A stretch of 64,000 nt of DNA from an uncultured delta proteobacterium (GTDB taxonomy: Bacteria > Desulfobacterota > Binatia > Binatales > Binataceae). The notes beneath the pieces are model-generated. The model did no database searches and was not told the DNA's origin. It worked only from the letters and a program-made list of their open reading frames with translations. How positions within the stretch are numbered: position 1 is the first letter of the stretch; every line of letters begins with the position of its first letter. Positions 17,668 through 21,153 of the stretch are shown here, piece after piece. A program made the translations under genes and the position numbers. Location of the stretch: contig CAWCDG010000004.1 in the NCBI GenBank assembly GCA_963794325.1, positions 1,088,001 through 1,152,000 of the forward strand, in the 5' to 3' direction.

Positions 17668-19002
17668 ATGGCGACTTCCCACGAGGGACAACTCAAGCGC
17701 AAAAAAATCAGCGCCGATGAAGCGGCGGCAAAAGTCAAATCCGGCGACTGGGTCGAGTACGGGTTCGGCCTCGGCCAGCCCGACGTTTTCGATCGCGCGC
17801 TCGCCCAGCATGCGCCAAAGCTCGAGCGCGTCAAGATCCGCGGATGTCTCGCGATGCGGCCGCGCGCGGCGGTCGAGGCCGATCCCGACGAACGTCATCT
17901 CACTTACCTGTCGTGGTATTTCTCCGGCCTCGAACGAAAGATGCACGATCGCGGCCTCGCGCATCATATTCCCATGAACTTCGGCGAGGCGCCCGACAAC
18001 TACCGCCGCTTCATCGAGGTTGACGTTGCCGTGCTGAAGACGGCGCCGATGGACGCGCATGGGTTTTTCAACTTCGGCCCGTCGGTCACCTATCACAAGG
18101 CGATTACCGAAAAGGCGAAGACCCTGATCGTCGAGACGGACGCGAGTGTGCCGTACGTTTTCGGAATCGAGAACGCCGTGCATATAGATGATGTCGAATA
18201 CGTGATCGACGCGGGCGCATCGGAGCTGCCGGAGCTGAAGAATCCCGCGGCAAATGCGGTCGATCAGAAAGTCGCCGAGCTGATCGCGCCGGAGATTCCG
18301 AGCGGCGCATGCGTACAAATAGGAATCGGCGCCATGCCCAATGCGGTCTGCGAGTTGCTCGCAACCGCGCCCATCAAAGACCTCGGCGTGCACACCGAGA
18401 TGTTCGTCGATTCCCTGGTGTCGCTGTTCGAGGCCGGCAAGGTTACCGGCGCGCACAAGGCGACCAATCGATACCAGATGACGTACACCTTCGCGGCGGG
18501 CTCGAAGCGGATGTACGACTTTCTCGACCGCAACGCCGTGTGCTTCGCGGGCCCGGTCGATTACACCAACCTGCCGAATCACATCATGCAGAACGATCGC
18601 GTCATCTCGATCTGCAACGCGGCGCAAATCGATCTCACCGGGCAGGCGTGCTCCGAGTCCGCCGGCATGCGGCAGATAAGCGGCACCGGCGGACAACTGC
18701 AATTCGTGCGCGGCGCGTACGCCTCGCGCGATGGCAAGTCGTTCATATGCCTCGCGTCGACCTACGAGCGCGATGCGCATCGCGCGAGCCGAATCGTCGC
18801 GCGCATCGACGATTGCAATATCGTGACGACGCCGCGCACCGACGTGATGTACGTCGTGACCGAATACGGGATCGTCAATCTAAAAGGCAAATCAGTTCCG
18901 GAGCGGGCGCGCGCGCTGATCTCGATCGCGCATCCTGATTTCCGCGAAGAGCTGGAAGGTCAGGCTCGCGAGTACCGACTTATCTCTCGCGCCATTTTCT
19001 GA
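17668..19002 (+). CDS. Acetyl-CoA hydrolase/transferase (4-hydroxybutyrate CoA-transferase-like)
   Basis: QIGIGAMPNAV, GVHTEMF, SGTGGQLQF, VVTEYG. Confidence 0.9.
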   Translation: MATSHEGQLKRKKISADEAAAKVKSGDWVEYGFGLGQPDVFDRALAQHAPKLERVKIRGCLAMRPRAAVEADPDERHLTYLSWYFSGLERKMHDRGLAHHIPMNFGEAPDNYRRFIEVDVAVLKTAPMDAHGFFNFGPSVTYHKAITEKAKTLIVETDASVPYVFGIENAVHIDDVEYVIDAGASELPELKNPAANAVDQKVAELIAPEIPSGACVQIGIGAMPNAVCELLATAPIKDLGVHTEMFVDSLVSLFEAGKVTGAHKATNRYQMTYTFAAGSKRMYDFLDRNAVCFAGPVDYTNLPNHIMQNDRVISICNAAQIDLTGQACSESAGMRQISGTGGQLQFVRGAYASRDGKSFICLASTYERDAHRASRIVARIDDCNIVTTPRTDVMYVVTEYGIVNLKGKSVPERARALISIAHPDFREELEGQAREYRLISRAIF

Positions 19003-19015
19003 GATTCAGCGACAG

Positions 19016-19339
19016 TCAGCGCGCCGGCGTCTCGTCATCGTTGTCGTCGGCGAACTTGTACACGAGCTCGTCGGGCCGCGCGTATCCAAGCTCGCGGCGA
19101 ATCAGGCGCTCGATATAACGGTCGTCTGAACGAAGCTTCTGAATGCGCGTTCTGAACACCGCGTTGTCCGCTGCCAGTTGATTGCGGCGGGCCTCCAATG
19201 CGGCACGATGGCTCTGGAGGGCAACGAGGTCGCGCGGCCCCAGGTTGCCGAGCAGTGCACTTAAGATAAGCATCACCAGAACCCCGCCGAAGATTAGGCT
19301 GAGCCACTCGCGGCGGAGAACGAAGCTTAACCGGGTCAT
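19016..19339 (-). CDS. ftsB: Septum formation initiator / FtsB family
   Basis: Single TM, coiled coil, YIERLIRRELGYARPDE. Confidence 0.85.
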   Translation of the reverse strand: MTRLSFVLRREWLSLIFGGVLVMLILSALLGNLGPRDLVALQSHRAALEARRNQLAADNAVFRTRIQKLRSDDRYIERLIRRELGYARPDELVYKFADDNDDETPAR

Positions 19340-19441
19340 CCGAGGAATGGTAATGCAACGAGCGGGTCGAGTTCAAGAGAGCTAATTTTGAACGTCATTC
19401 TAAAGACCCGAAATAGACCGGTTCGGTTGCGTTCTTCCGAC

Positions 19442-19503
19442 TTTAAAATTTGTTTATAAATATCGCGATGGCCCTTGATTTGAGAATAACATGTTTCTAT
19501 AAT
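19442..19503 (+). promoter_or_regulatory. Strong sigma70-type promoter with AT-rich upstream element
   Basis: TTGATT (19475-19480), 17-bp spacer, TATAAT (19498-19503); upstream TTTAAAATTTGTTTATAAAT. Confidence 0.75.
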
Positions 19504-19584
19504 CGGCCCGAACCGATGAGAGATAAACTCTCATCCATAAGAAAAGGCGCTTCTCCAGCAGCAGCCTACGAAGAGGAGGTACCT

Positions 19585-19689
19585 ATGCCAGGAATGAAGA
19601 AACGGGCCAAAAAGGCCACCAAGTCCAAACCGATGCGGAAGAGCAAAATGGCAAAAAAGAAGCCTGCCAAAAAGACCAAAAAGAAGTAA
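19585..19689 (+). CDS. 34-aa Lys-rich basic microprotein
   Basis: GAGGAGGT RBS; MPGMKKRAKKATKSKPMRKSKMAKKKPAKKTKKK (16 K, 2 R, no acidic residues). Confidence 0.75.
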   Translation: MPGMKKRAKKATKSKPMRKSKMAKKKPAKKTKKK

Positions 19690-19705
19690 CCACTTAACGA
19701 GTTTA

Positions 19706-19783
19706 CCTTCGGGCTAATACCCCGAAGGCTGGCGGAGGCTGCCAGGGTTCGCTGCTGGATTAAGCCGAGGCCGAAAGGCCTCG
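19706..19783 (+). ncRNA. Structured 3' UTR / candidate RNA element
   Basis: Hairpins CCTTCGGG/CCCGAAGG, CTGGC/GCCAG and CGAGGCC-GAAA-GGCCTCG. Confidence 0.4.
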
Positions 19784-19792
19784 CAACACGGG

Positions 19793-19826
19793 AGAGCCCC
19801 TTCGAAAGAGGGGGCTCTTTCCTTTT
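19793..19826 (+). terminator. Intrinsic terminator
   Basis: AGAGCCCC...GGGGCTCT followed by TTCCTTTT. Confidence 0.75.
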
Positions 19827-19893
19827 CCGGCGCTTGCGGGCGTGCGCATTCAACATGATAGGGTTCGATCGCGGCGACGCCTCGCGAACCCTG

Positions 19894-21153
19894 ATGTCCG
19901 AGTCAGCGAAAAACTTTGACGTGATAATTGTCGGCGCCCGCGTGGCCGGCAGCGCCGCTGCGATATTACTCGCGCGTGATGGGCGTCGCGTTTTACTAGT
20001 CGACAAGGACGCATTCCCGTCGGATCGGCTTTCGACGCATATCGTGCTCGGCGGCGGGACCAAAGTGCTCGAGCGAATGGGCGTCCTCGAAATGCTCGAG
20101 CGCGCGGGCGGCGTCCGCTTCACGCGATCACGCACGGTTGGTCCCGATTTTGACTATAGCGGCGAACTCATGCGCGAGGGCGCCGACAATCGCGGACTGT
20201 GCCTCGGACGCGTGCTGATGGACGCCGCGATGATCGATGCGGCGCGAAGTTTCGAAGGCGTCACGTTTCGCGAACGCTTCAGGCTTACCGATCTGCTCAT
20301 CGAAGATGATGCGATCGTGGGAATTCGCGGCGAGGATGCGGCGGGCGTGCATGAGTTTCGCGCGACGCTGACCATCGGCGCCGACGGGATGCGCAGTTCG
20401 GTTGCGGAAATCGCGTCGGAGCGTATCGACGCATTCCCGCGCGTCGACGTTCCATGCGCGCGCGCATATTACTATGCGTACTTCGAAGGTGTCGCGCGGA
20501 AAAATCTCGGCGACGATCTGATCGCGGAGTTCGAGTCGGCGCCCGGTGCCGGCAACCTGGTTTGCCGATGTGAGAACGGGCTCACGGTCGCCGCGACGGC
20601 GTTCGACGCGTCCGAGATGCAAACCTTTCGCACCGACCTCGCATCGAATCTGCGCAGCTATCTGAATCGATCGTTCGCAGTTGGCAAGATGCTCGAAGGC
20701 GCGACGATAGTCGGCAAAGTGTTTTCTTCGGGCATCCTCAACAACACGTATCGCAATCCGGTCGCTGACGGCGCGATTCTGCTCGGCGACGCGGGCCTGC
20801 ACGTCGATCCGCTGTTCGGACAGGGGCATTCGATGGCGCTGATGAGCGCATGGATTGTTGGCGAGCTCGCGCGCGAGTGGTTCTCCACAGGCCGCGGCAA
20901 CGCGATACCCGTCGGCATGCTGGACGACTTTACGCGGCGGCGCGATGCGGAGTTGATGCCGTACTACAAGGCGAGCGTGCAGGTATCGCGTGAGATCCCG
21001 CTCGATCGTGCGAGCCGTCTGGCGCATCGCGCGGCGAGCCGAGAGCAATGGGCGGCGGACGAGATGATTCGATTCGCGCAGATGCTCGCGCCGAGCGCAG
21101 CGTTGTCGTTCCGATTCGCGCGCCTGATGGCGGCCGCGTCACGCGACGCCTAA
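19894..21153 (+). CDS. FAD-dependent oxidoreductase (geranylgeranyl reductase / monooxygenase-like)
   Basis: DVIIVGARVAG, IGADG, LLGDAGLHVDPLFGQG. Confidence 0.85.
   Translation: MSESAKNFDVIIVGARVAGSAAAILLARDGRRVLLVDKDAFPSDRLSTHIVLGGGTKVLERMGVLEMLERAGGVRFTRSRTVGPDFDYSGELMREGADNRGLCLGRVLMDAAMIDAARSFEGVTFRERFRLTDLLIEDDAIVGIRGEDAAGVHEFRATLTIGADGMRSSVAEIASERIDAFPRVDVPCARAYYYAYFEGVARKNLGDDLIAEFESAPGAGNLVCRCENGLTVAATAFDASEMQTFRTDLASNLRSYLNRSFAVGKMLEGATIVGKVFSSGILNNTYRNPVADGAILLGDAGLHVDPLFGQGHSMALMSAWIVGELAREWFSTGRGNAIPVGMLDDFTRRRDAELMPYYKASVQVSREIPLDRASRLAHRAASREQWAADEMIRFAQMLAPSAALSFRFARLMAAASRDA

Follow-up and report, generated by a model that had tools for sequence, protein, structure and literature searches.

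The window analyzed here is a 64,000-nt stretch of the genome of an uncultured delta proteobacterium (assembly GCA_963794325.1, contig CAWCDG010000004.1, positions 1,088,001 to 1,152,000), and the subject of this work is a short gene cassette on its plus strand, located next to the septum formation initiator gene ftsB. Re-reading of the sequence confirmed that window positions 19443-19826 hold one self-contained gene cassette, as a preliminary description made from the sequence alone had proposed. Every element named there (an AT-rich tract, a promoter, a 5′ hairpin, a strong ribosome-binding site, three 3′ hairpins and a terminator) could be located (Table 1), and its view of the cassette as a monocistronic unit divergent from ftsB was supported. 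The predicted transcription unit would give rise to an mRNA of roughly 315 nt with a small open reading frame (ORF) for a polybasic peptide. The minimum free energy (MFE) of the whole RNA is -125.1 kcal/mol, compared with -89.1 ± 4.9 kcal/mol in 100 shuffled sequences (z = -7.3), and in the MFE fold of the window transcript the 5′ untranslated region (UTR) pairs with the 3′ UTR.

Table 1. Features of the cassette and its neighbors, in window coordinates.
Feature	Position	Strand	Remarks
ftsB (septum formation initiator)	19016-19339	-	Pfam DivIC, 4.3e-14; divergent neighbor
AT-rich tract TTTAAAATTTGTTTATAAATAT	19443-19464	+	Upstream of -35; UP-element-like or protein-binding site
Promoter	-35 TTGATT 19475-19480; -10 TATAAT 19498-19503	+	17-nt spacer; 10/12 consensus matches
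Predicted transcription start	~19510	+	From promoter position
5′ hairpin P1 GATGAGAG/CTCTCATC	19515-19522 and 19528-19535	+	8 bp, 5-nt loop; ~5 nt past predicted start; MFE fold
Long-range helix, 5′ arm: GCTT, bulged C, TCCAGCAGC	19549-19562	+	Partner 19751-19765; covariation
Shine-Dalgarno GAGGAGG	19573-19579	+	ATG five bases further on, at 19585
34-aa polylysine ORF	19585-19689	+	Stop TAA 19687-19689
ORF-internal hairpin GGCC-AAAAA-GGCC	19605-19617	+	
3′ UTR hairpin H1 CCTTCGGG/CCCGAAGG	19705-19727	+	Compensatory changes
3′ UTR hairpin H2 CTGGC/GCCAG	19728-19745	+	5′ arm has alternative partner GCCAG 19587-19591 at start codon
Long-range helix, 3′ arm: GCTGCTGGA, TT, AAGC	19751-19765	+	Covariation, as for 5′ arm
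3′ UTR hairpin H3 CGAGGCC/GGCCTCG	19766-19783	+	Abuts long-range helix
Intrinsic terminator	19790-19826	+	14-bp stem, GAAA loop, CTTTT tail
FAD-dependent oxidoreductase	19834-21153		Downstream of cassette

Nine bases of the leader, TCCAGCAGC (19554-19562), are exactly complementary to GCTGCTGGA (19751-19759) in the 3′ UTR. This complementarity had been pointed out in the preliminary description, and we found that it belongs to a 13-bp helix that covaries strongly. This helix (GCUU/AAGC plus UCCAGCAGC/GCUGCUGGA, 13 pairs) was tested on alignment A4, which comprises 54 transcripts, 14 from the genus of the window and 40 from 24 other genera (25 genera in all), and was compared with 500 shuffles. 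Among the 702 cells 92.0% were paired, 12 of the 13 pairs showed compensatory change, and compensatory cells numbered 46 vs. 13.6 ± 3.2 in the shuffles, none of which (0/500) reached the observed value of any of five measures. When the partner was slid by 1-3 columns, pairing fell to 15-50%. The compositions of individual pairs illustrate the changes (UA 26, CG 15, UG 6; AU 41, GC 8, GU 4; CG 40, UA 6). Within the genus the arms are nearly invariant (36/36 at most positions), with only single changes that are compatible with G-U pairing. RNAalifold recovered the helix de novo both on the 36 same-genus sequences and on the 54 family sequences; on A4 it extended the helix to 17 pairs and placed it along with P1, H1, H2, H3 and the terminator. 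The median pair probability of the helix in partition-function folds of the same transcripts was 0.81, with values of at least 0.8 in 28 of 54.

Two further genera have a helix at the same place that is built from unrelated sequence, GGGACGUCAGGAC/GUCCUGGCGUCCC in genus g52 and GCGRCGCYAGCGCA/UGCGCUAGCGYCG in genus g53, and two species of g53 differ from each other by a compensatory change from A-U to G-C. We consider these helices of divergent genera to be the strongest single argument for the pairing, and on these comparative grounds we regard pairing of the 5′ UTR with the 3′ UTR as proven by covariation. The covariation tests, on A4 and on alignment A5, were made without any unpublished genome. 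Two additional pairings put forward in the preliminary description did not fare as well. GCAGCCT (19561-19567) and AGGCTGC (19736-19742) are indeed complementary in the window, but only 65.0% paired in the 54 relatives, which is no better than shuffles (26 of 500 were as good by percentage paired and 199 of 500 by covariation score). The local fold AGGC:GCCT, proposed as a mutually exclusive alternative, was 62.1% paired and was left without comparative support (24/500 and 52/500 shuffles as good on the same two measures).

The remaining secondary structure was assessed in the same way. A hand-drawn structure of 55 pairs was 84.9% paired on A4, with compensatory change in 39 pairs. Hairpin P1 shows double-sided changes among the 36 same-genus sequences (AU/GC 28/6 and GC/AU 27/9), and is 63% paired across the family, where this part of the transcript is poorly aligned. 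H1 carries compensatory changes within the genus (UA/CG 19/4 and 25/9), and across the family five of its eight pairs change on both sides. H2 is 83.8% paired with one of five pairs covarying, H3 is 93.8% paired with four of seven pairs changing on both sides, and the terminator is 91.0% paired with double-sided changes in nine of 14 pairs. A search of Rfam gave no family at threshold; the best score, 22.2 bits for BjrC68 against a gathering score of 39, came mostly from the terminator. We also considered mimicry of ribosomal RNA (rRNA), as H3 with its flank (TAAGCCGAGGCCGAAA, 19761-19776) matches the 23S rRNA of the same genome (G000:C7:316753-316768) at 15 of 16 nt. This candidate was rejected: with an E-value of 0.098, a different fold and a loop that other genera do not conserve, the match was judged to be due to chance. 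The same match would be 16/16 in most same-genus relatives.

The ORF encodes MPGMKKRAKKATKSKPMRKSKMAKKKPAKKTKKK, a peptide of 34 residues of which 18 are lysine or arginine and none is aspartate or glutamate, as had been described. An intact ORF of 28-38 aa was present in 74 of 76 loci, and ORFs of 21-34 aa were found in five further loci. Indels within the ORF are in frame, entropy at codon positions 1, 2 and 3 is 0.51, 0.65 and 1.11 (64 distinct ORFs), and the ratio of non-synonymous to synonymous substitution rates (dN/dS) has a median of 0.153 over 811 between-genus pairs. These substitution patterns indicate that the ORF is a real gene under purifying selection as a protein, which is a positive outcome for the conservation check that had been suggested for it. 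The consensus of the family, MPVKKK..KKATKSKP.LKS.MKKKA.KKKKKK, shows a conserved residue pattern, so the peptide is more than mere composition. Lysine and arginine make up about 43-59% of the residues, and none of the 79 intact ORFs contains a hydrophobic stretch. The two exceptions to the intact ORF are locus L078 (genome G126, genus g32), which is frameshifted to 47 aa, and L100 (G079, genus g43), which has a premature stop; both keep the UTR structure, and sister genomes of the same genera (L094 and L069) have intact ORFs. These disruptions could be assembly errors in A-runs, real pseudogenes or programmed slippage on lysine A-tracts. The hairpin inside the ORF is longer in other genera, sometimes with a UUCG or UAAG loop (e.g., L072, L070), and because it recurs across loci the coding sequence seems to be constrained by RNA structure as well.

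Searches for relatives of the peptide in known families gave little. No family of Pfam or NCBIfam, ribosomal proteins included, matched the window peptide, and when 56 members of the peptide family were scanned, two of them gave a single weak match to a family (E = 0.1). A profile search of PDB chains returned a zinc finger alone (E = 0.85), and in the ESM atlas the nearest named cluster, HC2, of whose members 20% carry HC2, scored 0.79, which is below a level often reached by shuffled proteins. In a profile search of 1.84 billion representative proteins we obtained nine clusters, all of which are the same peptide, some with false N-terminal extensions (P0003-P0007). By these sequence searches, the peptide represents a new microprotein family without detectable relatives. 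Its partner may be a polyanion, either nucleic acid or the ribosome, a suggestion drawn from its charge alone. A mechanical list of ORFs also contains a 189-aa ORF on the minus strand (19566-20135) and a TTG-started 79-aa ORF on the plus strand (19450-19689) that overlap the cassette, both of which look like artefacts of a G+C-rich genome. The 79-aa ORF begins upstream of the promoter, and the N-terminal extensions that gene callers have given to the peptide are the same kind of error.

The cassette occurs throughout one family, Candidatus Binataceae according to record titles, a lineage described as having no cultured member (PMC8262859). Of 36 other genomes of the genus, 34 have the 391-nt region, with identities of 73-95%, and it was found in none of 24 genomes from 12 other families of the class. 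R1, a covariance model of the 3′ UTR, matches 139 of 151 family genomes, in 26 of 30 genera; an order-level draw added nothing new, as all genomes drawn belonged to the same family (141/151 matched). With a peptide profile searched in six frames, 21 of 25 family genomes were positive, compared with 0 of 175 genomes in 19 other families of the class. Three genera without an R1 match are g42, g52 and g53, to which is added one genome, G070, of the partly matched genus g34. In the ftsB loci of five R1-negative genomes we nevertheless found the AT tract, the promoter and a lysine-rich ORF of 21-34 aa divergent from ftsB in all five. Alignments A1, A2 and A3, and hence model R1, contain one row each from the unpublished genomes G019 (L035) and G024 (L025). 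The same-genus tally of the 391-nt region and the family and order-level tallies of R1 include these two genomes, and the R1 tallies also include the unpublished genomes G077, G101, G103, G118 and G130. Among named genome records, the peptide was present in 43 of the first 80 of 118 matching stretches, the other 37 being chance matches without the ORF; the 43 records are labeled Candidatus Binataceae, Binatus or Binatia (18), uncultured delta-/proteobacterium (24) or otherwise (1). Titles and abstracts of the literature on Binatota small proteins and Binatia metatranscriptomics contained nothing on this RNA or peptide.

The position of the cassette is fixed with respect to ftsB, which is divergent from it in 40 of 40 other-genus loci as well as in the five further genomes, while the downstream FAD oxidoreductase is common to only 11 of the 40. 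Within the genus, the coding sequence has a median identity of 94.0% to the window, the 3′ UTR 92.6% and the 5′ UTR 88.4%, compared with 85.4% for ftsB and 83.3% for the oxidoreductase, so the UTRs are conserved at least as well as the neighboring coding genes. One genome, G004, holds two whole cassettes (C6:25457-25842 and C10:268075-268464, 94% and 92% identical to the window), which may reflect two strains in one bin (contamination figure 5%).

We then considered the promoter region. In 18900-20300 the cassette promoter is the sole promoter-like site (1 found; shuffle mean 0.3), and in the genome scanned (4.45 Mb, 60.4% G+C, 85% complete) no other TTG[AC]NN-N16-18-TATAAT site occurs on either strand. 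A loose motif for the AT tract likewise had its single match in these 4.45 Mb at the cassette. The tract is kept almost letter for letter in 36 same-genus loci and is recognizable in other genera, and within the spacer the motif ATAAC..GTTTC is conserved across the family. Judged by its sequence, the cassette promoter looks like the strongest in the genome. By rough arithmetic, assuming independent bases, one would expect about ten near-consensus sigma-70 sites per genome vs. the one found, and AT-rich consensus hexamers look depleted in this genome. The idea that the promoter type is shared with the rRNA operon was rejected, as the region upstream of the 16S gene has TTGACA..TACTGT and is without the AT tract; this dissimilarity means that there is no evidence for co-regulation with the translation apparatus. 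A second conserved non-coding element (19371-19403, 30-70 nt upstream of the ftsB start) lies in the interval that separates ftsB from the peptide promoter and consists of the inverted repeat GTTCAA..(11 nt)..TTGAAC with ATTCTAA after it. Most other genera have its pattern, TTCAAG-N-CTWAT-N-TGAACG-NN-ATTCTAA, as well, and the element could be the ftsB promoter, a 5′ UTR hairpin or an operator.

The 5′ arm of the long-range helix ends 11 nt before the Shine-Dalgarno sequence and 23 nt before the ATG. The GGAGG core of the Shine-Dalgarno sequence is invariant in 36/36 same-genus loci. Thermodynamic prediction for the 54 transcripts gave mean unpaired probabilities of 0.27 for the 5′ arm region, 0.68 for the Shine-Dalgarno sequence, 0.52 for the AUG and 0.22 for positions +3 to +6. 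The Shine-Dalgarno sequence is therefore predicted to be left accessible and mostly unpaired. The preliminary description had placed the UTR pairing next to the ribosome-binding site; the pairing itself stands, and a masking of the site does not, as the helix stops upstream and the Shine-Dalgarno sequence is predicted to be open.

Two further contacts between the early coding region and the 3′ UTR were evaluated. After the AUG comes a GCCAG that has its complement in CUGGC, the 5′ arm of H2, and that was predicted to be paired with the 3′ UTR in 30 of 54 single-sequence ensembles. The corresponding pairing UGCCAG:CUGGCG is possible in 80.3% of cells, with no covariation and a score equal to that of shuffles; because both sides are invariant, this contact is not provable by comparison. 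In five genera (g33, g34, g36, g38 and g40) the 3′ UTR is without the CUGGC arm of H2, and ORF bases 17-25, AGCCCGGUA (codons 6-9, K-P-G), are complementary to UGCCGGGC immediately 5′ of the long-range arm, with energies of -12 to -18 kcal/mol. In the 26 loci considered (L076, L084, L085, L087, L088, L090, L092, L099, L104-L106, L240 and L246-L259), this contact was 92.6% paired, with 0 compensatory pairs and a result equal to shuffles. Three synonymous sites within AGCCCGGUA are fixed in 24-25 of the 26 loci, whereas neighboring lysine third positions vary (16/26), and one species of these genera has a re-registered complement. Taken together, these sequence patterns give a hint that the early coding region may also touch the 3′ UTR.

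RNA sequencing had also been suggested as a check for this locus. RNA matching the cassette occurs in many soil and root libraries: 24 runs from 18 studies were listed, nearly all of them soil or root metatranscriptomes, and 17 RNA-labeled runs contained 43-60% of the sampled transcript 31-mers, several of these runs amounting to only 13-29 million letters. Contigs from four runs of four different studies, compared with the region 19250-20050, covered 19528-19818 only, with word depths of 470-1414 in one run. They end within 19791-19818, at the terminator, and separate short contigs lie on 3′ parts of the transcript (19679-19746 and 19751-19791). These contigs give neither strand, level nor true ends, and word shares in the other 20 listed runs were not used as evidence of habitat. 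There was no contig cover on ftsB, the promoter or the downstream gene (19250-19527 and 19819-20050), which is no proof that these are silent. What these data show is thus limited to presence in RNA libraries, confined to the predicted unit.

Known bacterial messages with paired UTRs offer several points of comparison. In Bacillus, the hbs message encodes HBsu, a 92-aa protein with the HU fold, and the ribonucleases that act on it are RNase Y and J1. The hbs study describes a short and very stable B. subtilis message for this abundant basic nucleoid protein, in which the 5′ UTR downstream of a hairpin forms a 14-bp interaction with the 3′ UTR upstream of the terminator, as verified by compensatory mutants; the interaction limits cleavage of the leader by RNase Y, and an initiating ribosome on a strong Shine-Dalgarno sequence shields the remainder (PMC5737220). 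The cassette has the same layout: its message is short and monocistronic and encodes a small basic protein, its leader is structured by a 5′ hairpin, its Shine-Dalgarno sequence is strong, and a leader-3′ UTR helix of 13-14 bp is preceded by a hairpin and followed by a terminator and leaves the ribosome-binding site free. The two differ in that there is no homology of sequence or protein, the product here being a peptide of 21-38 aa without a fold, so the resemblance is that of a mechanism class and not of a homology family. In addition, hbs rests on mutants in one species, while the present case rests on covariation over 27 genera and is known from sequence alone. In icaR of Staphylococcus aureus, as summarized in the source, a motif in the 3′ UTR covers the Shine-Dalgarno sequence and creates a substrate for RNase III (PMC3868564). 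The cassette shares with icaR the intramolecular pairing of 5′ and 3′ UTRs in a bacterial mRNA, but its helix ends 11 nt upstream of a Shine-Dalgarno sequence that is predicted to be open, and pairing of the 3′ UTR with that sequence was not borne out.

Type I toxin mRNAs such as those of hok/sok and aapA1/IsoA1 also consist of a small ORF in a compact structure closed by long-distance pairing of the ends, and in this respect the highly structured cassette mRNA is similar. The caveat in the preliminary description that such toxins are hydrophobic proved well placed, since the analogy fails on the nature of the toxin: the peptide is without a hydrophobic segment (0/79 ORFs). Furthermore, unlike these toxins the cassette is present in single copy at a fixed chromosomal site, divergent from ftsB in 45 of 45 loci outside the genus. 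No antisense promoter-like site was found on the minus strand of 18900-20300, and the RNA contigs are unstranded. By size and charge, bS22, bTHX and bL36 are tiny polybasic ribosomal proteins. The first of these is presented in a title as a ‘small mycobacterial ribosomal protein’ (PMC10081302). The peptide resembles these proteins, or the H1-like Hc2 (PF07382), in having about 25-40 residues or a lysine/alanine/proline-rich composition and an extreme positive charge, and all of them are presumably extended on nucleic acid; it differs from them in that no profile or sequence match connects it to either.

Based on the layout shared with hbs, we propose that the cassette may produce a protected, closed-loop, high-output mRNA of the hbs kind, with stability coupled to initiation, which would deliver a polycationic peptide; we give this reading a probability of about 0.5. 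The helix joins the leader, after P1, to the 3′ UTR, before H3 and the terminator, so that a closed loop encloses the ORF with its ribosome-binding site and two of the 3′ hairpins. A strong promoter would drive the short structured mRNA, and the helix would hide nuclease-sensitive single strands of the leader, as it does in hbs. The terminal hairpins, the helix and a ribosome initiating at the strong, exposed Shine-Dalgarno sequence might then together make a long-lived message whose lifetime is tied to its translation. The peptide would be too short and basic for folding by itself and would act by binding a polyanion such as rRNA, the nucleoid or another RNA. Several observations weigh against this proposal. 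AlphaFold gave no fold for the peptide, with a mean predicted local distance difference test score of 71.5, a predicted template modeling score of 0.24 and a single helix of six residues. When cognate and foreign UTR pairs were compared without an alignment, the result was only weakly positive (-38.6 vs. -34.4 kcal/mol; the best 5% held 6 of 28 genera), which we ascribe to most genera having the same arm sequence and to duplexfold ignoring intramolecular structure. The predicted pairing of positions +3 to +6, with the 3′ UTR in 30 of the 54 ensembles, suits a translational gate as well as protection. The term ‘abundant’ is based on the occurrence of the RNA in libraries of small size and on the word depths of one run. 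Finally, contigs are bordered by Illumina adapter sequence at two places, within P1 (19528/19530) and at the base of the terminator (19791); such ends could reflect processing, stops of reverse transcription or the ends of fragments, and the mature RNA may therefore be processed and not full length.

The second contacts and the adapter-abutted ends are what speak for a translational gate of the hok/aapA1/icaR kind, in which the closed full-length RNA would be inert as its 3′ UTR also pairs with the start-codon region or with codons 6-9, and translation would need processing or refolding, for example local formation of H2 using the same CUGGC. The low unpaired probability of the start-proximal bases (0.22), their complementarity in 80.3% of cells and the ORF:3′ UTR complement of the five genera, with its 92.6% pairing and three fixed synonymous sites, are all consistent with such a gate, CUGGC has two possible partners of the same sequence, as a switch needs, and the ends at 19528/19530 and 19791 could be processing sites. 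We nevertheless hold this explanation to be doubtful. Neither second contact shows compensatory change, and ATGCCAG is kept even in genera whose 3′ UTR has no CUGGC, so its conservation has another cause. The Shine-Dalgarno sequence is not sequestered, unlike that of icaR in the published description (PMC3868564), and a peptide that is not a membrane toxin does not obviously need tight silencing. Autoregulation, in which the peptide, possibly a ribosomal or nucleoid protein, would bind the junction of the helix, P1 and H3 on its own mRNA and either repress or stabilize it, as ribosomal proteins do, could explain why the same-genus helix arms are more invariant than pairing alone demands and why the conservation of the UTRs equals that of the coding sequence. 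The size and charge of the peptide are like those of tiny basic ribosomal proteins, and the strong promoter and ribosome-binding site would suit an abundant structural protein. We consider this quite unlikely, given that the peptide has no sequence or profile similarity to ribosomal proteins or solved chains, that the 16S promoter of the same genome is built differently, and that H3 resembles 23S rRNA no more than expected by chance.

It is improbable that the transcript, or a fragment of its 3′ UTR, serves as a base-pairing or protein-sponging regulator for which the peptide is secondary. Such a dual function would fit the high conservation of the 3′ UTR, the most conserved part in the genus by this account (92.6%) and detectable by a covariance model in 26 genera, as well as the separate short contigs on 3′ parts only. 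Most of the conserved 3′ UTR positions are, however, explained by covarying helices, no conserved single-stranded seed stands out, Rfam has no family at threshold, and the ORF is clearly selected as a protein. Half of the codons specify lysine, and several hairpins and a terminator follow the ORF, features that would also be expected of a lysine-codon leader peptide with a transcription attenuator for the downstream gene. This alternative has hardly any probability left, as the downstream gene is not constant (oxidoreductase in 11/40), about 100 nt separate the stop codon from the terminator that follows it, the helix arm needed for sensing the ribosome is upstream of the ribosome-binding site, the RNA contigs stop at 19818, and the peptide sequence is conserved beyond its lysine content. 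Both the attenuator and a non-coding RNA are close to excluded.

Intramolecular pairing of the 5′ UTR with the 3′ UTR in bacterial mRNAs is known from a handful of experiments in single species (hbs, icaR and type I toxins). Here such pairing is shown by evolution, with compensatory changes over 25 genera and the helix sequence swapped in two more. Although a mechanism of this class has been described before, what is new is the RNA structure and the peptide family, how widely they occur in the phylogeny and how strong the comparative evidence is, and the cassette provides a clean natural system for asking what closed-loop bacterial messages do. The lineage that carries it is a globally distributed and uncultured one of soil, and the transcript is readily detectable in soil and root RNA libraries. 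A more specific and rather unlikely variant is that the peptide is a lineage-specific ribosomal or nucleoid protein that has its binding site at the 5′-3′ helix junction of its own mRNA; if true, this would be a closed-loop messenger ribonucleoprotein that senses the pool of free peptide, and maybe one of the most abundant non-ribosomal RNAs of these bacteria. If the peptide is a component of the ribosome or nucleoid, the few tiny basic proteins known to be lineage-specific would gain a member, and the transcript could also mark the activity of these bacteria in metatranscriptomes.

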